From: Escherichia phage dhaeg
Reading direction: 5' to 3' (one strand)
Sequence record: MN850609.1
DNA length: 64,000 bases
Part shown: positions 18,358 to 57,516 of the stretch, one piece after another
Layout of the letters: each line of letters starts with the position of its first letter
How positions within the stretch are numbered: the first letter of the stretch is position 1
The notes under the pieces: model-generated
Told to the model about the DNA's origin: nothing
Databases searched by the model: none
Seen by the model: only the letters and a program-made list of their open reading frames with translations
Position numbers and translations under genes: made by a program

Positions 18358-18386
18358 GTTTACATGGTCTATAGGCATGATACTAT
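18358..18386 (+). promoter_or_regulatory. early promoter cassette with inverted repeat ggtctatag/ctatagacc around -10
   Basis: gtttac 18358-18363, tactat 18381-18386. Confidence 0.55.
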
Positions 18387-18678: not shown

Positions 18679-18704
18679 AGCCTTATCAACTTGAGGAGAA
18701 TAAA

Positions 18705-25248: not shown

Positions 25249-26393
25249 TTGAATTATATGATAACTTGATGACTTTGGTTAAAAACTCGACTAAATCTAA
25301 GTTCTTCTTTAAAGACTTCCAGAGTGCGCTAGGAGTCAACTATCGCATCTTTAGTTATAACTATGCATCGTACAGTGATTGGTTGGAAGACGGCGCACTA
25401 GAGTGCCGAGGCATTATGTTTGAAATGGACGAGAATGGTCCTGTACGTATCGCTGCTCGTCCTATGCAAAAGTTCTTTAATCTCGATGAAAACCCGTTGA
25501 CTATTGGTTTGGATTTATCACAAGAAAATATCGACCTCGTAATGGCCAAGGAAGATGGTTCTTTGATTTCTACCTTCATGGATAGACAATATCTTTCTGT
25601 TAAATCTAAAGGCTCTATCCATTCATCGATGGTACATGATTCTTTACGTTTCCTTCGACTCCCTGAAAATGAGGCCTTTGCTGCTCGTTTAGAAGAAATT
25701 ACTAAAGCAGGCTATACGTGCAACCTCGAGTATGTTTCGCCTACTAACCGTATTGTGCTGGCATACCAAGAAACAAACCTTATCTTACTGAACGTTCGTA
25801 ATAACGAAACAGGTGAGTATATCCCTTACGCTGAACTGTTTAAAGATGGCGCTCTGCGTAAGCATTTGGTTAAAAGCTATGAACTCGCTGAAGGTGATTT
25901 TGTTGACAATATCCGTAAACAAGAGGGTATTGAAGGCTTTATCTTTGTACTTAAAGATGGTACGTTCTTTAAACTCAAAACCGCTTGGTATAGCGCACTG
26001 CATCATACCAAAGATTCCATTAACAACAACGAACGTTTGTTTGAAGTTGTAGTGGCCGGTGGAACCGATGACCTCCGAGGTTTGTTCAGCACAGATTCAT
26101 TTGCTATTGAGAAAATCAATGCATTTGAACGTATCCATTTAGACTACTTAGAACAGTCCTTGGCTTTGTTAGAAGCAGCATATTCTCAGCTCAAGGGTCG
26201 TGACCGTAAAGACTATGCTGTTACCGGTCAGTTAATTCTCAAAGACTTCCCAGGGCTGTTCTCTATTCTTATGCAGGCGTACGTAGGCGGTATTAATTAT
26301 GATACGGTCGTAGACCAGATTAACTCTGTGTTCTTGAAAAATCATAAGGCCCAAATCCCTGAAAAATATTTGAAAGAAATTGTGATAGAGTAG
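25245..26393 (+). CDS. rnlA: RNA ligase 1
   Basis: 382 aa; YRIFSYNYASYSDW...ALECRGIMFEMD, KEDGSL (lysine nucleotidyl motif), NRIVLAYQE...LLNVR.NETGEY match T4 Rnl1. Confidence 0.95.
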   Translation: MIELYDNLMTLVKNSTKSKFFFKDFQSALGVNYRIFSYNYASYSDWLEDGALECRGIMFEMDENGPVRIAARPMQKFFNLDENPLTIGLDLSQENIDLVMAKEDGSLISTFMDRQYLSVKSKGSIHSSMVHDSLRFLRLPENEAFAARLEEITKAGYTCNLEYVSPTNRIVLAYQETNLILLNVRNNETGEYIPYAELFKDGALRKHLVKSYELAEGDFVDNIRKQEGIEGFIFVLKDGTFFKLKTAWYSALHHTKDSINNNERLFEVVVAGGTDDLRGLFSTDSFAIEKINAFERIHLDYLEQSLALLEAAYSQLKGRDRKDYAVTGQLILKDFPGLFSILMQAYVGGINYDTVVDQINSVFLKNHKAQIPEKYLKEIVIE

Positions 26394-30124: not shown

Positions 30125-30154
30125 GTTTACAACATGGTAGGACTGTGGTATAGT
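30125..30154 (+). promoter_or_regulatory. early promoter cassette with inverted repeat gtaggact/agtcctac
   Basis: gtttac 30125-30130; tatagt in loop. Confidence 0.5.
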
Positions 30155-32840: not shown

Positions 32841-33193
32841 AATCGAGGAGCCGTCGAACTGTCTGATTAATGATTTGCGAATCATTATAGTTTTAAGACC
32901 CCGGCAGTTTTACGGTGTACCTCTTGAATGTTATTTTATAGCGGCAAGTGCATGCTACCCCGAGGTGATGGCCAATCGGGAGTACGCCTCAAGGCCTATA
33001 TACCCATCAGTATATATCTTATCCTCGAGAAATCGAACCCGGAACCTTTAAGCTAACGGTGCGCAACAGATAAGAGCTATGATGACGAGGTTTATGGTTA
33101 TCCTGTCGTTAAATATCCGAAACCTATGTTCCCCTTGAGGGCTTGCGCAGGCAACGCCAATAAGTCCTGCATTCTAATTTAAGAGATTTAAAA
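32841..33193 (+). other. ORF-free ~350-nt region with local hairpins (candidate structured RNA, regulatory leader or decayed gene)
   Basis: no ORF of at least 60 aa on either strand in a genome that is otherwise coding almost everywhere; hairpins at 32868-32888 and 32997-33016. Confidence 0.25.
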
Positions 33194-33355
33194 ATGGCTA
33201 AGAAAGAAGTTAAAGTAGTTGACGGAACCTCTAAACGCGCTGGTTACAAGCGTGCGTCTAACAAGCGTATCAATCAGGTAGTTGATAAGCTTCAAGCTCG
33301 TGCTCGTGCAGTATTGCGTGCAGATGCTGCTTGCTTCGGTAAAGTTATTGCATAA
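33194..33355 (+). CDS. small basic protein (53 aa)
   Basis: MAKKEVKVVDG...KRAGYKRASNKR...; followed directly by a strong terminator. Confidence 0.4.
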   Translation: MAKKEVKVVDGTSKRAGYKRASNKRINQVVDKLQARARAVLRADAACFGKVIA

Positions 33356-33360
33356 GTTAT

Positions 33361-33390
33361 GGGACTCTTCGGAGTCCCATTTTTGTTTCT
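33361..33390 (+). terminator. intrinsic terminator
   Basis: gggactCTTCGGagtccc + TTTTTGTTT. Confidence 0.7.
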
Positions 33391-33476
33391 AAATCTTTAA
33401 AAAAGGGTATACATCTCCGGTAGGCATGATACTATAGACATGTACCAAATAATACGAAAACAAACCGGAGAATAAA

Positions 33477-33845
33477 ATGAAAATCAATCTTAACTCATAT
33501 ATCAAATGTAAAGACCACGACGGTTATAAAGCTATTGAAACTAAAGAGATGCAATGGCGCTTGTACAAAGAACAATTTGAATTTGTAGGTTGTATGACTC
33601 CTGAAGGTCCTTCCGATGACTTCTCTTGGAAAATTTTGGTAACAAACTTTTTTACTGGTGATACCTACGAACTGAAAACTATCATAACCGGTAAGATTCG
33701 TTGTAAGACCTATGAAGATGAAGAAACCGGTTATTCTGAAGATGTTACATGGTATCAAAATGGTCGTATAACTGCAGATAACTTGATCGAAAAAATGAAA
33801 GCCAAAGGTGAATTAAATTTAGATAATTGGATTAAAGTTGCATAA
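33477..33845 (+). CDS. hypothetical protein (122 aa)
   Basis: ATG after ggagaataaa SD; leader nearly identical to that of the next gene. Confidence 0.5.
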   Translation: MKINLNSYIKCKDHDGYKAIETKEMQWRLYKEQFEFVGCMTPEGPSDDFSWKILVTNFFTGDTYELKTIITGKIRCKTYEDEETGYSEDVTWYQNGRITADNLIEKMKAKGELNLDNWIKVA

Positions 33846-33848
33846 AAC

Positions 33849-33876
33849 GGTTTACTTTGGTACAGGTTGTGTTATT
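33849..33876 (+). promoter_or_regulatory. early promoter cassette with inverted repeat ggtacaggt/acctgtacc
   Basis: gtttac 33849-33854; tattat 33871-33876. Confidence 0.5.
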
Positions 33877-33919
33877 ATAGACCTGTACCAAATAATACGA
33901 AAACAAACTGGAGAATAAA

Positions 33920-34285
33920 ATGAACTACATCAACTTCGAACGTAAATATGTTTCTAACGGTATCGCTGGTTCTTCTGAAGTTATTTGCCTGTGGAAACAC
34001 AACAACGGCACAGTGTGCGAAATCGAACAGTGCATGACTCCTAACTACGTTTATATGCGCTTTGAAAATGGTATCACGGTTTCAATCACTATGGAAGGTT
34101 CTACTTTTAAAATCGCTTTAGACGATGATTTCCGTCAACGTGATTTAGGTACCCATCCTTGCTGGAACGGCGCTAATCGTAAGCTTCTGGTTAAAACTTG
34201 GATTCGTCATATCCTGAGCAACCGTGCTAAACCTGAACACCTGGAAGCAATCTTTGATGTAGTTCTGAATGAATTTGATATCTAA
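33920..34285 (+). CDS. hypothetical protein (121 aa)
   Basis: ATG after ggagaataaa SD. Confidence 0.5.
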   Translation: MNYINFERKYVSNGIAGSSEVICLWKHNNGTVCEIEQCMTPNYVYMRFENGITVSITMEGSTFKIALDDDFRQRDLGTHPCWNGANRKLLVKTWIRHILSNRAKPEHLEAIFDVVLNEFDI

Positions 34286-34326
34286 TCTTAAAAATGGAGG
34301 CTTCGGCCTCCTTTGAGGAAAATATT

Positions 34327-34809: not shown

Positions 34810-35025
34810 ATGGTTAAGAAACTGATTCAGAAATTGTTAGGTACGGAAATGGTTGAAGTGACTTATCGTGTGACTGATGTTTCTCCTCATACGGCAGACC
34901 ATTTAGAACCTTATATCATGACAATTAAAATGCCTAAACATGACGGTGGCTTATCCATTGAAGACCGACTACCTGGTTATGGTCATTGGGCTGATGTGGA
35001 GATTATCAGTGTCAAAGATATTTAA
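34810..35025 (+). CDS. hypothetical small protein, tandem paralog 1
   Basis: 71 aa; LxKKLxxxEMVEVTYRV.D.SP ... RLP..G.W....IISVKD shared with next ORF. Confidence 0.55.
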   Translation: MVKKLIQKLLGTEMVEVTYRVTDVSPHTADHLEPYIMTIKMPKHDGGLSIEDRLPGYGHWADVEIISVKDI

Positions 35026-35034
35026 GGAACCTTC

Positions 35035-35247
35035 ATGATTAATAAATTATTTAAAAAGCTGTTTGGTTTGGAAATGGTTGAAGTGACTTATCGTGTTATT
35101 GATTTATCACCGCCATATGCTTGCGATGAAGATGCTATTAAAACTGTTGTTATGCGAAAAACATATCGCGGGCGGTCAATTAAAGAAAGATTACCGGACC
35201 ATGGCATGTGGTATGCAACCAAGATTATAAGTGTCAAAGATGTCTGA
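35035..35247 (+). CDS. hypothetical small protein, tandem paralog 2
   Basis: 70 aa; paralog of 34810..35025. Confidence 0.55.
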   Translation: MINKLFKKLFGLEMVEVTYRVIDLSPPYACDEDAIKTVVMRKTYRGRSIKERLPDHGMWYATKIISVKDV

Positions 35248-38338: not shown

Positions 38339-40399
38339 ATGACCGAACAATTGAATGAGGTGTTTGAGTCCGAAGGCACCCTGCCTACTGTAAACTTAAA
38401 CCCAAAACTTAAAGTACCGCAGATTTGGAAGATTGGCGACGCCGAATCCCAATTAGTGGCCCGTATGGTATCTTATGCCTCTGAAGGCGATGCTATTAAA
38501 CAGGTTAAATTAGGTGATAAATACGCCCATGTTATCCTTATGAGCCTTTCAGCTAAAGGTTCTCCGGCCGAACTTAAAGGTGGCTTAGGCCCTACTCCTA
38601 TTGATGCTATTAATACCATTTTCGACGTAGTATTCGAACAAGTTAAAAAGCTTCGTATGGATGCTGTGATGTTCCGTTTTCCAACCAAGAAAATGAAAGG
38701 GCAAGGACCTATTGTCCAACGGATTATCCAACGTTTGGTAGCACAGAAAACCGGTGGACGTTTTAAAGTAGTTCCGGCTATGTACCAATTTACCGGTAAA
38801 CATACTTATATCCTAGTAGTTCGTAAACAAGCTGATATCGAAGATATCAAAGGTATGCCTGGAATTAATGCCGAATTGTATACTAAGGTAGATTCTGATG
38901 TTGGTGAAGTTTATATTTCTAAAAAAGAAGGCCTGCAGGTTACTAAAGAAACTGCTATTGCCGGCAGTATTGCTAAAGTTGAAGAACGTCGCACTGATAA
39001 AATGGTTATAACCAAGACTAAGATTTCTCGTCGCGCTATTGCAGCAAGCCAGTCTTTAGAATCCTATCGTAATGAAAGTGAACTGTTTAAGAAATATGAA
39101 GCCACTGCCGCTGATTTTAATAAACCGGCAACAGCTCCATTAATCCCTGATGCCCAAGAAATGGTTACTAATAACAATTCTCCTGCGGCTAAAAATAAGG
39201 TTGCTAATATAGTAGCTGAAGGCACTGCTGAAGAGTTGCATTACGATTATAAAATGTTTCCTCTTCACGGTATAGGTGAAATCCAAGAGAAAATTAAAGA
39301 GAGAATCCTTACGGCCATCAAAAACGAACCTTTGACATCTGTTAAAGCTCTAGAAAAATATGCCTCTGTTATTAATACCGTTTTCGAAGAATACAAAGGT
39401 GAATGGCTGGCTAAGCATAACAAAACTCGTAAAGGTCAGCCTGATGACGTCTGGAATGAATTAACCGAGTCCAAGTGGAAAGCAGCCAAGACCAAGTTCA
39501 TTAAAAAACGTGTGTATAGTTTTGCTGGTGTAGGTGGTGGTATTATGGTTGATATTACTTTAGGTCATAGTGCAGATAAATACACCCCTTCTCAAAAACG
39601 TGGTATTCGTGAATATTGTGGCTCCGGATATGGCGATATCAATAACCTTCTTTTAGGACGATATAATCCTCAGAACTATGAGGTTATGAGCGAAAAAGAT
39701 ATCGAATCTGCAGTTAATAATTTGGATTCTGCTTTTGAAAACGGTGATAGATTACCTGAAGGCATTACTGTTTATCGTGCACAGAGTATGACGTGGGCCA
39801 TATATAATGCTTTAGTCAAAAATAAAGTATTCTATTTTAGAAACTTTGTATCCACTTCACTGACTCCTATTATTTTCGGCCGTTTTGGTGTTACTCATGC
39901 GGGTGTGGGTCTTTTAGAGCCTGAAGTTAGAGCCGAACTTACCGTAGATAAAAATGATGAAGGTTATACTAAGGTCCAAGGTTCCGGCGACAAGTTGGTT
40001 AAAGTTGGTTGGGCTATTGATGGGGCTTCTAAGGTTAACGTAGTATTCCCTGGGCAACTTGGCATTGCTACTGAAGCTGAAATCATTCTCCCGCGTGGAC
40101 TAATGGTAAAAATTAATAAAATAACAGATGCATCCAATAATGACGGTATAATATCCAACAATACAAAACTCATTCAAGCTGAAGTTATGACAACAGATGA
40201 GCTTCAAGAGTCAGTGGTATATGATGGTGATGTACTAATGGAAACTGGTGAATTGGTTGTATACCAAGATGACTTCGATACTTCCGAAAGCCCTGTATCT
40301 TTTGATTCATTTGTTAAATCTACACGGTTTGACGTACTGCCTCTTTTGGCTTCATGCATAGACCTCTATGACATCCCAGAAAAATTCATCCAAGGGTAA
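38339..40399 (+). CDS. alt: Alt-like ADP-ribosyltransferase, paralog 1
   Basis: 686 aa; N-terminal packaging region like T4 Alt (..LP.TNL.PK.K.PQI, MDAVMFRFPTKKMKG); C-terminal R-S-ExE ART signature (VYRAQ, FVSTSL, EAEIILPRG). Confidence 0.85.
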   Translation: MTEQLNEVFESEGTLPTVNLNPKLKVPQIWKIGDAESQLVARMVSYASEGDAIKQVKLGDKYAHVILMSLSAKGSPAELKGGLGPTPIDAINTIFDVVFEQVKKLRMDAVMFRFPTKKMKGQGPIVQRIIQRLVAQKTGGRFKVVPAMYQFTGKHTYILVVRKQADIEDIKGMPGINAELYTKVDSDVGEVYISKKEGLQVTKETAIAGSIAKVEERRTDKMVITKTKISRRAIAASQSLESYRNESELFKKYEATAADFNKPATAPLIPDAQEMVTNNNSPAAKNKVANIVAEGTAEELHYDYKMFPLHGIGEIQEKIKERILTAIKNEPLTSVKALEKYASVINTVFEEYKGEWLAKHNKTRKGQPDDVWNELTESKWKAAKTKFIKKRVYSFAGVGGGIMVDITLGHSADKYTPSQKRGIREYCGSGYGDINNLLLGRYNPQNYEVMSEKDIESAVNNLDSAFENGDRLPEGITVYRAQSMTWAIYNALVKNKVFYFRNFVSTSLTPIIFGRFGVTHAGVGLLEPEVRAELTVDKNDEGYTKVQGSGDKLVKVGWAIDGASKVNVVFPGQLGIATEAEIILPRGLMVKINKITDASNNDGIISNNTKLIQAEVMTTDELQESVVYDGDVLMETGELVVYQDDFDTSESPVSFDSFVKSTRFDVLPLLASCIDLYDIPEKFIQG

Positions 40400-40402
40400 A
40401 TA

Positions 40403-42526
40403 ATGGAAAATTTAAACGAAGTTTTTGATAGTGATTCCGCTAAAAACTATCCAGTAACAAATCTTAAACCAGGCTCCGGTATCCCACAGATTTTCTCTAT
40501 TCAAGCACCAGGTAACGATAACCTGGTTGCTCGTATGGTATCTTATGCGTCTCAAGGAGACGCTATTAAAATGGTTAAGCCCGGCGACAAATACGTTCAT
40601 GTTATTTTAATGAGTTTGTCGAGCAAGGGTGCTCCAGCTGAACTAAAAGGTGGCCTTGGTTCCGACCCACTTGGTACATTGAATACTATTTTCGATACGA
40701 TATATGAACAAGTAAATAAACTTAAAATGGATGCGGTTTTGTTCCGTTTCCCTACCAAGAAAATGAAAGGTAAGGGCCCTACTGTTCAGCGTGTATTAGC
40801 TCGTTTGGCGATGGCACGTACCGGTGGTAAGTTTAAAGTTGTCGATAGCATGTTCCAGTTTAGTGGTAAACATACATACGTTCTTTTAGCACGTCGTGGC
40901 ACTAATATCGAAGATATCAAGGGTATGCCTGAAATTGATGCGGACCTTTATACCAAGGTTGAGTCTAAAGTCGGTGAAGTTTATGTTTCTAAGAAAACCG
41001 GCCAGGCCGTAAGTAAGGTCGAAGCCGTAGCAGCATCTATTGCACAGGTTGAAGAGAAACGTACCGATAAGGCTGTTATCTCTCGTACTAAAATTTCCCG
41101 TCGTATGGCTGCAGCAGCGCAGTATTCTACTGCCGAACCTGAAACTTTATCACCTAAAGAATTGCAGGTTTATAACGAGTTTGAAGCTTCCGTCCCTGTT
41201 CACTCGGCCGAAGGCCCTGAGAACGAAGGTATTGAACAAATTAGCCAGAACTTTAAAAAAGGTGCTATTACTAAAATGCGTCAGGCCTCTCAGTTTAAAT
41301 CTAAGAGTGAGGACCTTGCCAACTTTAGATACACCATTGCTCTCACACACGCTTTAATGACTGATAGTAAATTTAAACTAAATTATGCTAATAGAGATAA
41401 ACAAGGGTTTGAAATTTACTCTAATAATATGGCATTTTTTAATACGGAAGTCGATAGACTTTTAAGCGGCCTTTCTCAAATCAATACTACCAATAGTCTG
41501 GATATTATTAAGAGAATTGTTAATAACCTGAGTGCCCGTTTTCAGGGGTCTCCTTCAGAGAAAGCATCCCGAATTGCTTTCGCTATGGAAGCCGTTTATA
41601 AACTGATTAACGATTCTATTAGCGATGCATATGCTTATTCAGGCGAGCTCATTAAACCTAAGGGCTTGACCAAAGACGAAAGTAATGCCATTATTGAATA
41701 TTGTGCGGCTGAATATGCTCCTATGAACTTATTCCTTTTAGGTAAACCTGAATCCGAAAACAATACAACAGCTATTAAATTGATTAAGGATTTAGACTCA
41801 GCATTTACCAAGGGTATTAAACTTCCTAAGGGTACTATTTTGTATCGTGGTCAGGATTTACCATACAAAATTCTGCGCCATAATATTGATAACAAAACCT
41901 TTTACTTTAAGAACTTTGTATCCGCTTCATTAAAGCCTAATATCTTTGGTGAATTTGGTAAAAATTATATGGCCCTCGACAACCAAGCAGTTTTTGTTGG
42001 TGATGAAGGTTCTTTATCCTCCGCCGATGAGTTGTTTAAATTGGCCAGTGGTAGTTCATCTGACGTAGGTGAAGTTGATGATGAAGAGGTAGAATGGGAA
42101 GAAGACGAGTTTGGTAATCCAATTGCACCTGAAGGCCCTGCAGACAGGATTGCTGAAATTGGTATGGTTATTCGAGGTGCTGAAGCAGTTAAAGTTATCG
42201 CTCCTGGTGACCTTACAGAATATGCCGAAGAAGCGGAAATTATCCTTCCGCGCGGATTATTGTTGAAGGTTGATAAAGTAGCAGCTTTTGCTATGAATGA
42301 TAGGGTATCTCACAAATACCTTATGGAAGCTACAGTGACATCTCCTTCAGAACTCAGTGAGTCCGTTTACGATGGTGACCATCTGATGGAAACCGGCGAA
42401 GTTAAATTGATGAATGGGTTTAAAGAATTCCTAGTTTCAGAATCTGTTTCAGAAAGTAACGAGGCTATGGAAATCCTTGCTGCATCTTTGGACATCTCTT
42501 CTTTACCAAATAAATTCAAAATGTAG
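40403..42526 (+). CDS. Alt-like ADP-ribosyltransferase, paralog 2
   Basis: 707 aa; first ~230 aa closely similar to paralog 1, divergent middle; ART signature (LYRGQ, FVSASL, EEAEIILPRG). Confidence 0.85.
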   Translation: MENLNEVFDSDSAKNYPVTNLKPGSGIPQIFSIQAPGNDNLVARMVSYASQGDAIKMVKPGDKYVHVILMSLSSKGAPAELKGGLGSDPLGTLNTIFDTIYEQVNKLKMDAVLFRFPTKKMKGKGPTVQRVLARLAMARTGGKFKVVDSMFQFSGKHTYVLLARRGTNIEDIKGMPEIDADLYTKVESKVGEVYVSKKTGQAVSKVEAVAASIAQVEEKRTDKAVISRTKISRRMAAAAQYSTAEPETLSPKELQVYNEFEASVPVHSAEGPENEGIEQISQNFKKGAITKMRQASQFKSKSEDLANFRYTIALTHALMTDSKFKLNYANRDKQGFEIYSNNMAFFNTEVDRLLSGLSQINTTNSLDIIKRIVNNLSARFQGSPSEKASRIAFAMEAVYKLINDSISDAYAYSGELIKPKGLTKDESNAIIEYCAAEYAPMNLFLLGKPESENNTTAIKLIKDLDSAFTKGIKLPKGTILYRGQDLPYKILRHNIDNKTFYFKNFVSASLKPNIFGEFGKNYMALDNQAVFVGDEGSLSSADELFKLASGSSSDVGEVDDEEVEWEEDEFGNPIAPEGPADRIAEIGMVIRGAEAVKVIAPGDLTEYAEEAEIILPRGLLLKVDKVAAFAMNDRVSHKYLMEATVTSPSELSESVYDGDHLMETGEVKLMNGFKEFLVSESVSESNEAMEILAASLDISSLPNKFKM

Positions 42527-53448: not shown

Positions 53449-54861
53449 ATGGCTTTTACTGTAAGTATAGCCGGCACAGCGTCTATTAAAATAGGCGAAA
53501 GTGCTAACTACACTGCTACCGCAACAGGTGCAGCTGTAGAAGGAACCATTACATATGTATGGTCTATTGATGGTGCTTCTAATCCAGAAGCAACCAATGT
53601 TTTGAAATATACAGGTGCTGCACCTGTAGGTAAGAAAGTTTTAAAAGTAGTAGCAACTTCTACTCCGGCTGAAGGCGAACCTGAGGTAGCTGAAGATACT
53701 TTTGAAGTTACCGTAGCTAATAAGACCATGTCTATTTCTTTGGCTTTGGACCCTATTTCTGTTTCTAAAGAAGTTGGCCAATCTCAAGTTGTTACTGCTA
53801 ACGTGACGGGTGCACCTGCAGGTGCAACAATTGCTTATGTTTGGAAACGTAACACCAGCGTAATCTCTGGCCAAACTGGTAAAACTATTACTGTAACCGA
53901 AGCCGCGGAAGCAAATTACACGTTGAACTGTGAAGTTACTGTTACCGCCCCTGAATATAACCCGGGTACCGCTACTAAAGGTGCTGCGGTAACTTTTGTT
54001 AAGAAAACTATATCAGGTGTTTCTGTTACTTTAACACCGGCCTCAATTAGTACAGAGAAAGACTCATCTGCACAGTTTAAAGCGGATGTAGTCGGCGCTC
54101 CTTCCGGCGTAAATGCAACTTATTCTTGGAAGAAAAACGGTTCTATTATTCCGGGCGAAAGCAGTAATACTCTTGCTGTTGATACGTCTACAATAGGTTC
54201 TTACTCTATTGAAGTTTCGGTACTCCTAAAAGGTACGGATTATAATGATTTAACCGTTACCAAAACAGGAAGTGTAACAATTACTAAAAAGACTATGGCA
54301 GGTGTTTCTGTTAATTTAACGCCTGCTTCTATTACTGTCTCTGAAGGAATCCCGGCTTCTTTTAAAGCCACGGTAGTCGGTGCGCCTAGTGGTGCTACTT
54401 TTGCTTATTCTTGGAAGAAAGATGGTTCACCTGTTGTGGGTGCTACGGATACATTAGTAATTGACACAAGCGCTGAAGGTTCACAGGTTATTGAAGTTTC
54501 TGTTGTGGTTTCGGCTACCGACTATAATTCTGTGACCGTCACAAAATCCGGTAATGTAACAATTACGGCTAAAGTCGCTCCTGAACCAGAGGGCGAACTA
54601 CCTTACGTTCATCCGCTACCAGTTCGTAATTCAGCTTATATTTGGTGTGGTTGGTGGGTTATGGACGAAATTCAGAAAATGACCCTTGAAGGCAAAGACT
54701 GGAAAACTGACGAACCTGATAGTGAATATTATCTCCATCGTTATACCCTTCAAAAAATGGTAGCCGATTATCCTGAGGTTGATGTACAGGAATCTCGTAA
54801 TGGTAGAATTATTCACAGAACCGCTTTGGATGCTGGAATTATTTACGATTACGTTTATTAA
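53449..54861 (+). CDS. hoc: Hoc highly antigenic outer capsid protein, four Ig-like repeats + capsid-binding C-terminus
   Basis: 470 aa; C-terminus PEPEGELPYVHPLP...AYIWCGWWVMDEIQKMT.EGKDWKTD.PDS.YYLHRYTLQKM..DYPEVDVQESRNG.IIH.TAL matches T4 Hoc; four tandem ~90-aa Ig-like repeats. Confidence 0.92.
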   Translation: MAFTVSIAGTASIKIGESANYTATATGAAVEGTITYVWSIDGASNPEATNVLKYTGAAPVGKKVLKVVATSTPAEGEPEVAEDTFEVTVANKTMSISLALDPISVSKEVGQSQVVTANVTGAPAGATIAYVWKRNTSVISGQTGKTITVTEAAEANYTLNCEVTVTAPEYNPGTATKGAAVTFVKKTISGVSVTLTPASISTEKDSSAQFKADVVGAPSGVNATYSWKKNGSIIPGESSNTLAVDTSTIGSYSIEVSVLLKGTDYNDLTVTKTGSVTITKKTMAGVSVNLTPASITVSEGIPASFKATVVGAPSGATFAYSWKKDGSPVVGATDTLVIDTSAEGSQVIEVSVVVSATDYNSVTVTKSGNVTITAKVAPEPEGELPYVHPLPVRNSAYIWCGWWVMDEIQKMTLEGKDWKTDEPDSEYYLHRYTLQKMVADYPEVDVQESRNGRIIHRTALDAGIIYDYVY

Positions 54862-56010: not shown

Positions 56011-57516
56011 TTAAAACGTGCTCATATTGGTATGGTCTTCGACAGAAAATAAAACTTCAACAGGGATATCTGTAGTCGTATTAAGAGGGCCGCCTACAAT
56101 AAACACAGATACAGTGTAGTATTTTCTAGTATCACGGTCAAATATTTCGTAACGGTTAAATTGTCTTGCACTAGAATAAGCCAAATCGTCGAATAATTCA
56201 GGAGATGATGACCACAACACATTACTCCAGTTGGCACATTCTATTCCGTTTTCATAGTTGGTAAATCTTTTAATATCAAGCCTATTAGTAAGACCTGCAT
56301 TAGTAGCCCTTATATGGATGCCTACAGATGAGTACATGCGAACATGAAGAACCATATTAAGGTCCCACAAACGTATTTCCTTCCACTCTGAAGTGTTCAG
56401 AGGCTTATCAAATCTTAAAGAGCCTTTCCAATATCTAGGTGGATAGAATGGGAAAAGTTTATCATATAAAGATTTTAATTGAGACTGGGTTAAAGAATCG
56501 ACATCAAATACTGCATCTTTGCCTGGCGCACCTGCAGGACCTATAGGACCTTGAATACCTTGTGGCCCGGGTTCACCCTTTTCACCTTTAGGACCTGGGT
56601 CGCCTTGCGGTCCTTGGGCACCTTGCTCTCCAGGTGCACCATCTTCTCCGGGATTTCCTGGACGCCCTTCTTTTACAAATAAATTCCAATAATCGGCCCA
56701 CAGGTCTCCACTCCCAGGATAACTATCATTATTTGCTATATTATCCTGGATACAAATCCAAGAAGACCCTTCGCACTGGACCAAATCGTTTATATAATAA
56801 GACGAACCAAGGGCCCAGTTTCCGGCCCAGATAAACCCATTACCATCTTGGCCTGGCGCGCCTTGTGGACCTTGAGGGCCGGTTGGGCCTGTTGGTCCTT
56901 GAGGACCTGGTGCACCGATATTAGCCAATAGTGCCCAAACTCCTTCGCTAGGAGGTATTGTTCCTGTATTAGAACTGATGCAAAAATAAGAAGCTCCCTG
57001 GTATCCAACTGCATCGTCTTTAGAGTATTGGGTAGATTCATCCCAGGCTCCCTTCCACACCAAACCTGCCGGGCCTATAGGACCTTGTGGTCCTTGCGGT
57101 CCTACTTCTCCTTGGGCCCCTTGTAAACCCTGAGGGCCTTCTTTTCCTGGTGAACCCGGGTCTCCTTTAGGACCTTCTGGACCTGCTGGTCCTGGTTCGC
57201 CCTTTTCTCCTTTAGGACCGGGGTTACCTTGAATACCTTGCGGCCCTGGGTCTCCTTTAGGGCCTTGTGGACCTTCAGTACCAGGTGTTAGCATCTCATT
57301 AGTTATACCTAAATGGGCCAACGCGCCTTCCCTAGAAGCTTGTTTTATAAATTCAAGTCCATAGCTTTGAGAAGAATCTAGCATAGTAGGGTCTAAGGTG
57401 CTTTCACTAGTGAGTATGTCCACAAATTCCAATGATTTGTTCTGTGGAACTTCTACTAATGATACGCCTCTAAAGTGGCCTCTACCATCATGCCCGTATA
57501 ATGGATTGTCTGACAT
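56011..57516 (-). CDS. collagen-like triple-helix repeat protein
   Basis: 501 aa; three blocks of G-x-y repeats rich in Pro/Gln/Lys/Glu ([49 protein letters not shown]...), interspersed with repeated W.G.W...Y..D.V...G.S..CI globular segments. Confidence 0.75.

Follow-up and report, generated by a model that had tools for sequence, protein, structure and literature searches.

Why do two adjacent and apparently unrelated genes of a T4-like phage begin with almost the same leader? The question is raised by a stretch of 64,000 nucleotides from Escherichia phage dhaeg (MN850609.1; hereafter the window), in which a short segment upstream of one small gene recurs, with few changes, upstream of the next. 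In the initial annotation of this DNA the pair was taken as the footprint of a regulatory cassette that had been duplicated or recombined, with coding modules swapped behind a constant promoter and leader. The reading that we favor, with a probability of about 80%, is that the segments belong to a tandem pair of T4-type cassettes, each with an early promoter and a leader, of the promoter-early stem-loop (PeSL) class, which have been homogenized by conversion and which act as recombination joints.

The window belongs to a Dhakavirus (JS98/IME08/CLB_P2 group, T4-like) and is 96-98% identical to CLBP2, CLB_P2, and NC-G. The gene order on the + strand is that of T4: cd, 31.2, 31.1, 31, rIII, 30.9, 30.8, 30.7 ... 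30 (DNA ligase). The two genes behind the repeat are homologs of 30.8 and 30.7 (Table 1), with the protein sizes first given (122 and 121 aa). Both Pfam matches cover the full length of the protein (PF06019, 149.4 bits against a gathering cut-off of 25; PF06919, 174.5 bits against a cut-off of 27), and the AF2 models have pLDDT values of 92.9 (30.8) and 84.9 (30.7). Amino acid identity of 30.7 is 90-99% across the E. coli T-even genera. Functional clues were sought for both proteins, and none emerged. It had been proposed that comparison with related genomes would reveal which of the two genes was the newcomer. Neither is: the same order is found across T4-like genera, each gene with its own early promoter, and by synteny and orthology with the T4 genes both are long-standing residents of the locus. 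The spacer between rIII and 30.9 (32845-33190, about 340 nt) is ORF-poor and visibly more G+C-rich; a 58-aa ORF is annotated there in CLB_P2, its predicted fold is modestly better than that of shuffled sequences (z = -1.98), and searches of the spacer returned no Rfam match and no tRNA.

Table 1. Genes and predicted expression signals of the 30.9-30.7 region (window coordinates).
Position	Strand	Feature	Basis
33194..33355	+	Gene 30.9 homolog, 53 aa, upstream neighbor	PHROG 1427, E 6.5e-26; annotated 30.9 in IME08
33359..33386	+	Intrinsic terminator after 30.9 (9-bp stem, UUCG loop, then T-run); upstream stem-loop of unit 1	Terminator scan, RNA fold
33387..33406	+	AT-rich stretch 5' of the P30.8 -35, UP-element-like	Direct reading of sequence
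33407..33435	+	P30.8, predicted early promoter: GTATAC (33407-33412), 17-nt spacer with TGA, TACTAT (33430-33435)	Sequence; orthologous to Mosigvirus/TuIa P30.8
33414-33421	+	Anti-SD TCTCCGGT in P30.8 spacer	Pairing in predicted RNA folds
33427..33481	+	Repeat copy 1: extended -10, predicted +1 ~33442, 35-nt A-rich 5'UTR, SD GGAG (33467-33470), ATG (33477)	
33477..33845	+	Gene 30.8, 122 aa, 'W' allele class	Pfam PF06019 (Phage_30_8), E 5.9e-44; PHROG 1507
33850..33878	+	P30.7, predicted early promoter: GTTTAC (33850-33855), 17-nt spacer with TGT, TATTAT (33873-33878)	
33856..33892	+	12-bp inverted repeat TTTGGTACAGGT (33856-33867) / ACCTGTACCAAA (33881-33892), P30.7 -10 in 13-nt loop; PeSL-type stem-loop	
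33870..33924	+	Repeat copy 2: extended -10, predicted +1 ~33885, 35-nt 5'UTR, SD GGAG (33910-33913), ATG (33920)	
33920..34285	+	Gene 30.7, 121 aa	Pfam PF06919 (Phage_T4_Gp30_7), E 7.5e-52; PHROG 1582
34296..34311	+	GGAGGC-UUCG-GCCUCC hairpin after 30.7, end of the two-gene block	Fold -19.6 kcal/mol, z = -4.3

The 40-nt pattern TGTACCAAATAATACGAAAACAAACYGGAGAATAAAATGA has exactly two matches in the window (33441-33480 and 33884-33923), which differ from each other at one position. The full ungapped repeat is 55 nt long (repeat finder, family D14), with 51/55 positions (93%) identical; it starts with the TG of the extended -10 and ends with ATGAA, i.e., two bases beyond the ATG. Three of its four differences (A/T, C/T, A/C) lie in the -10 region and the fourth (C/T) is at 33466/33909. 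The near-identical leaders described in the initial annotation are thus present, but the repeat is longer than described there, and its limits were 2 nt off at one end of each copy. Eleven good early promoter-leader units were found in the window, and the 30.8/30.7 pair is the most alike (42/44), ahead of the next best pairs (0.86-0.79) and of a median of 0.63. The pair is therefore at the top of a range and is no lone outlier. As values of 0.79-0.86 are reached between other early leaders, some of the likeness comes from a leader consensus that selection maintains throughout the genome, and not from recombination alone.

Promoter-like units with stems, as first noted, are present at both copies, and their anatomy can be read directly from the sequence. 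The hairpin part of the terminator upstream of unit 1 (the unit before 30.8) occupies 33359-33380, and its counterpart is annotated as a stem_loop in the TuIa record (AJ621579). The AT-rich part of this unit (33381-33404) contains 21/24 A/T. The corresponding part of unit 2 (before 30.7) is short (TAAAACG), and the 30.8 stop codon lies 4 nt 5' of the -35. TGn precedes the -10 in both units. We infer promoter activity and transcription starts, the latter placed about 7 nt past the -10, from consensus and orthology. On that basis the repeated core would be essentially the whole 35-nt predicted 5'UTR plus the ribosome-binding site, with the block GGAGAATAAAATG at 33467 and 33910. The stem of the second unit has a predicted RNA fold of -22.5 kcal/mol (z = -5.1); that of the first, GGTAggCATG/CATGTACC around the -10, is weaker. 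Read by the sigma70 convention, P30.7 is TTTACT-16 nt-TATTAT and P30.8 is TATACA-16 nt-TACTAT, with one -35 mismatch, and a generic sigma70 scan flagged P30.7 alone and missed P30.8. No promoter features are annotated in the T4 record AF158101; the TuIa record annotates promoter, stem_loop, and RBS features. An Rfam search of the 31-37 kb region at E <= 1 gave no match.

The sequences 5' of 30.8 and 30.7 were taken from 39 loci (GenBank phages and IMG/VR), and the two leaders of each genome were compared as ATG-anchored identity over the last 45 nt. In genera with both genes, each gene has its own GTTTAC...TAnnAT unit, and nearly all units end in GGAGAATAAAATG. Leader identity is 0.93-0.98 in Dhakavirus, 0.78 in Mosigvirus, 0.49 in Gaprivervirus-like loci, and 0.38 in T4, ime09, and other Tequatroviruses. 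The one Dhaka-type exception, with an identity of 0.42, is a vB_EcoM-VR5-like locus (L028, IMGVR_UViG_2706795356) in which the ribosome-binding block of the 30.7 leader has been replaced and shifted; the Dhakavirus core is retained and the block differs (AAACCAAAGGATAATAAAATG), which indicates a recombination or mutation junction within the leader itself.

The similarity does not extend through the whole unit. The -35/spacer half of P30.8 is no copy of that of P30.7; the ortholog of each half is its counterpart in Mosigvirus/Tequatrovirus. For Dhakavirus P30.8 (GTATACATCTCCGGTAGG...) the ortholog is P30.8 of Mosigvirus (GTTTACTCTCCTGTAGG...), and P30.7 (GTTTACTTTGGTACAGG...) hardly varies among four genera, the promoter being conserved in Tequatro-, Mosig-, Gapriver-, and Dhakavirus. 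Already in Mosigvirus, TATAGACNTGTACC follows the -10 of both units and GGAGAATAAAATGAA lies at both start codons. The UTR core of about 20 nt between these patches (AAATAATACGAAAACAAAC) is identical in Dhakavirus only. The unit was detected in 40 phage records, including JS98; because a megablast with the 55-nt sequence reports one place per record, copy number per genome was taken from directly read genomes and IMG/VR loci, and the 24-nt core has just these two sites per genome.

The simplest reading of the near-identity is a short gene-conversion tract that would have become fixed in the Dhakavirus ancestor. A donor was sought by alignment of the core, and the result was a tie between the TuIa/Mosigvirus 30.8-type leader (0.73) and the Gaprivervirus 30.7 leader (0.75). 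Several further lineages likewise have a pair of leaders within the genome that is closer in sequence than orthologous leaders are on average. This is no more than suggestive of repeated concerted evolution, as the sequences are short and the early leaders of every genome follow a consensus of their own. The initial annotation was right that a regulatory cassette is involved and that modules have been exchanged or lost between such units, in relatives; the whole cassette, however, was not duplicated. Nor is the repeat a footprint of a gene swap at this spot: the shared stretch runs only from about the -10 to the ATG, which points to homogenization of leaders, by gene conversion or unequal exchange.

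Other explanations of the repeat have to be weighed against conversion. A chance match in AT-rich DNA or an assembly artifact might be suspected from the leader's richness in A and its rather low complexity. The odds of either are negligible: none of 100 dinucleotide-preserving shuffles contained a match to the 40-nt pattern, even with up to three mismatches, and two copies were read directly in the independently sequenced CLB_P2, IME08, and NC-G, are present in IMG/VR contigs, and are indicated by hit geometry in JS98 and about 40 other records. An ancient tandem duplication of gene plus leader, after which the proteins diverged beyond recognition and the leaders were kept alike, would account for two adjacent genes in the same orientation and of near-equal length. 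In both structural models, too, an N-terminal beta meander precedes C-terminal helices, and a weak 28-aa match (E = 0.036) was obtained with BLASTP, in which CMTP occupies the same position in the two proteins. CMTP, however, is nearly invariant in the 30.8 family and absent from distant 30.7 homologs, and hhalign of the two family profiles gave a probability of 0.2% over 8 columns. Foldseek searches of the AF2 models against BFVD point the same way: at E <= 0.001 each model matched only T4-like phage proteins 29-77% identical to itself (TM-scores up to 0.95), none of them in the top 50 of the other model, and the two top-50 lists had no target in common. Homology of 30.8 and 30.7 was rejected on these grounds. 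The proteins were first described as unrelated, with the proviso that a sensitive alignment might reveal homology; none was detected by these methods, and simple gene duplication is therefore not the explanation. The leaders, moreover, are dissimilar in T4 (0.38), so their identity in Dhakavirus is derived and not ancestral. We consider an ancient duplication very unlikely.

The other rival attributes the identity of the two leaders to selection through a shared trans-acting factor, such as a RegA-type translational repressor, the GGAG-cutting RegB nuclease, or a small RNA, rather than to copying. It gains from the invariance of GGAGAATAAAATG before both genes in nearly every genus sampled and its recurrence at 18695 in the window, from a 30.7 leader that is invariant in most Dhakavirus loci examined, and from the strong consensus common to other early leaders. 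The 20-nt core AAATAATACGAAAACAAAC behaves differently: it is not kept in the orthologous Tequatro-, Mosig-, and Gaprivervirus leaders, it occurs nowhere else in the genomes, and SNPs are tolerated in its 30.8 copy within the genus (ACAAAAAC, ACTAAAAC). Identity at 19/20 non-consensus A-rich positions would also be unexpected from convergence, and no Rfam family was matched. Selection through a common factor thus seems an improbable source of the core.

That the units serve as joints is indicated by natural variants of three kinds in relatives: replacements, deletions, and an insertion. Between the window and NC-G (both Dhakavirus), identity is about 100% on both flanks and about 45% solely across 33480-33845, the 30.8 ORF; the same pattern, with flanks of about 100% and about 45% across the 30.8 ORF, was observed between T4 and ime09 (both Tequatrovirus). 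Identity ends at GGAGAATAAAATGAAAA and returns at GTTTACTTTGGTACAGG. Such sharp breakpoints mark where homology begins and are not necessarily the crossover sites, as any flanking homology is usable between close relatives. The 30.8 allele of the window (92-100% aa identity) was found behind four genus-specific leaders, of Dhaka-, Tequatro-, Mosig-, and Gapriver-type, and most Dhakaviruses have a T4-type allele (78% aa identity to T4).

Natural deletions were searched for with a synthetic junction query in which unit 1 was fused to the 30.7 coding sequence. The 30.8 gene is deleted in TuIa (AJ621579), PTE-Eco05, and AV109, where 30.9 and its terminator are followed by a P30.8-type unit and then by ATGAACTAC... 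of 30.7. It is also deleted in JM10, where a single chimeric unit precedes 30.7, made up of the -35/spacer of Mosigvirus P30.8, a P30.7-type -10 and stem arm, and a Dhakavirus-type UTR. The arrangements in all four phages are the products expected of crossing-over between the two units. The same query, which did find the Mosigvirus and TuIa deletions, detected no Dhakavirus without 30.8 (0 of ~44 records). As this genus has the longest repeat, recombination between the copies must be rare or selected against there.

An insertion was also observed. In phage C6 an extra 118-aa ORF, which has its own terminator, separates the terminator of 30.9 from the AT-rich part of unit 1. In CC31-like and Klebsiella-phage loci (L022-L024, L030-L032, L035, L037, L038) an extra ORF of 162-173 aa lies between 30.8 and 30.7. 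It has a GGCCTTCGGGCC-type hairpin and an SD upstream but no promoter unit, and was for that reason rejected as a PeSL cassette; it is a further sign that this intergenic site is plastic. Farther downstream in the window, 34810-35025 and 35035-35247 are tandem paralogous, 30.4-like ORFs of 71 and 70 aa (78% nucleotide identity over the first 77 nt). The 30.4-like ORF is single-copy in CLB_P2 and IME08, and the pair has the look of a tandem duplication of recent origin, again within this plastic region.

The history that we propose combines these elements. Each unit consists of a predicted sigma70-type early promoter, a stem-loop over the -10, and an A-rich 5'UTR that is short and unstructured, followed by GGAGAATAAAATG and the start codon, and would thereby give its gene an immediate-early transcription start and a translation start of its own. 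In the ancestor of Mosigvirus and Dhakavirus the units would already have been related through TATAGACNTGTACC and GGAGAATAAAATGAA. In the lineage of Dhakavirus, gene conversion or unequal exchange would then have carried the sequence between these patches, some 20 nt, over from one unit to its neighbor, yielding the 55-nt near-identical repeat. The conserved patches may provide portable homology for the efficient recombination system of the phage, through which the 30.8 ORF could be exchanged between phages as a precise cassette; crossing-over between units would delete 30.8 and leave one unit, sometimes chimeric, driving 30.7.

PeSLs have been described in RB49/phi1 (Arbiol 2010, PMC2839356) and in T4/PST and KVP40/nt-1 (Comeau 2014, PMC4122927). 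They consist of an AT-rich stretch, a sigma70-like early promoter, and a stem-loop, mostly between the boxes or overlapping the -10, followed by SD and ATG (PMC2839356, PMC4122927); the promoter consensus in T4/PST is TTTACW ... TAYWAT (PMC4122927). PeSLs precede small genes in plastic regions and are tied to indels and replacements, with crossovers between the -10 and the ATG (PMC2839356, PMC4122927). All of these sequence-level features are found at the present locus: promoter, stem-loop, AT-rich region, SD plus ATG, and insertion, deletion, and replacement of ORFs with chimeric units. As with the published PeSLs, the flanked ORF is small, of unknown function, and replaced, deleted, or inserted between close relatives in a plastic region, and the chimeric units at deletion junctions have crossovers between -10 and ATG, as reported for mini-circles. 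There are differences. The flanked genes are conserved T4 genes and not ORFans, the stem is GGTACAGG/CCTGTACC instead of the published G(n)/C(n) or AGNA/TCNT, and the spacer by the sigma70 convention is 16 nt, compared with 17. In addition, the transcribed UTR of two adjacent units is homogenized in one genus, which the papers do not report for this locus. Judged by their sequence features, the twin units are a further instance of the PeSL cassettes already described.

Other systems of modular exchange offer partial parallels. In lambdoid phages, short conserved boundary sequences ('linkers') are located at module junctions of mosaic genomes. The units resemble these in being short conserved intergenic sequences at the ends of exchanged modules; unlike linkers, they are expression signals repeated within one genome, so that intragenomic deletion and conversion are possible too. 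Integron gene cassettes are likewise single ORFs, promoterless or self-contained, that are swapped at repeated sites, and circular intermediates have been proposed for them. At the 30.8/30.7 locus, in contrast, there is no integrase and no attC, each cassette carries its own promoter, and exchange is attributed to general homologous recombination.

The locus adds a new instance of a described phenomenon and no new principle, but in it well-studied coliphages provide the PeSL model with a clean series of natural variants. Two adjacent units are found at different degrees of homogenization according to genus, 30.8 is exchanged as an exact ORF cassette across four genera, and natural deletion products have junctions inside the units. 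It would be well suited to measuring how gene shuffling in T4-like phages is driven by expression signals that are short and conserved.

The arms of the P30.7 stem vary by genus and yet remain complementary (GGTACAGG/CCTGTACC, GGTGAGgGTCT/AGACtCTCACC, TTGGTGTAgGAGT/ACTCtTACACCAA, GCTGATTGAGTGT/ACACTCAATCAGC). Across genera 81.8% of cells are paired; sliding the partner lowers this to 32-44%. Four pairs are changed on both sides. This covariation argues for selection on pairing. In RNA read through from upstream, the P30.8 spacer UCUCCGGU (33414-33421) is predicted to pair with the SD segment ACCGGAGA (33464-33471), and the predicted probability that the 30.8 SD is unpaired is 0.01 in such RNA versus 0.72 in the unit's own transcript. 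The SD of the twin 30.7 leader is predicted to be open (0.91 unpaired), because its promoter half folds on itself. Occlusion that depends on transcript origin was predicted in 4/11 early units of the window, that of 30.8 included. In three further units (26393, 14012, 42526) the spacer is complementary to the SD, e.g., CTCCTCAT/ATGAGGAG at 26393. The 30.8 unit of T4 itself has TCCTTTGT/ACAAAGGA, and an apparent 11-bp anti-SD version was read by eye in CC31-like 30.7 units. An inverted repeat brackets the -10 in most early units of the window, as seen at 18358, 18649, 27684, and 30125 (arms GGTAGGACT/AGTCCTACC at 30125 and GGTCTATAG/CTATAGACC at 18358).

A possible, if rather doubtful, interpretation of these folds is that the stem-loops of early units may not be mainly terminators but discriminators of transcript origin, the anti-SD silencing read-through RNA and the unit's own transcript being translatable. 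Identical leaders would then be wired differently by non-identical promoter halves, and such translational insulation could make each cassette autonomous and therefore portable. The ribosome-binding sites of T4 genes e, soc, 49, and I-TevI are reportedly sequestered in read-through transcripts and free in those that start from a promoter inside the hairpin. The 30.8 SD is similarly predicted to be buried only in RNA from upstream. Those T4 genes have late or middle promoters, however; here the promoter is early, the occlusion is a prediction, and the twin 30.7 leader is not sequestered.

Repeats of other kinds were noted elsewhere in the window. Two adjacent large ORFs of 686 and 707 aa (38339-40399 and 40403-42526) are paralogous, with patches of 71-78% nucleotide identity in a 2070-nt register. 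Tandem repeats of about 285 nt (70-79% identity) are located inside a coding region at 53989-54566, suggesting repeated protein domains. On the minus strand, a 501-aa ORF (56011-57516) contains many CCTGGxCC-type repeats phased by 9 nt, which correspond to collagen-like Gly-X-Y on the coding strand.
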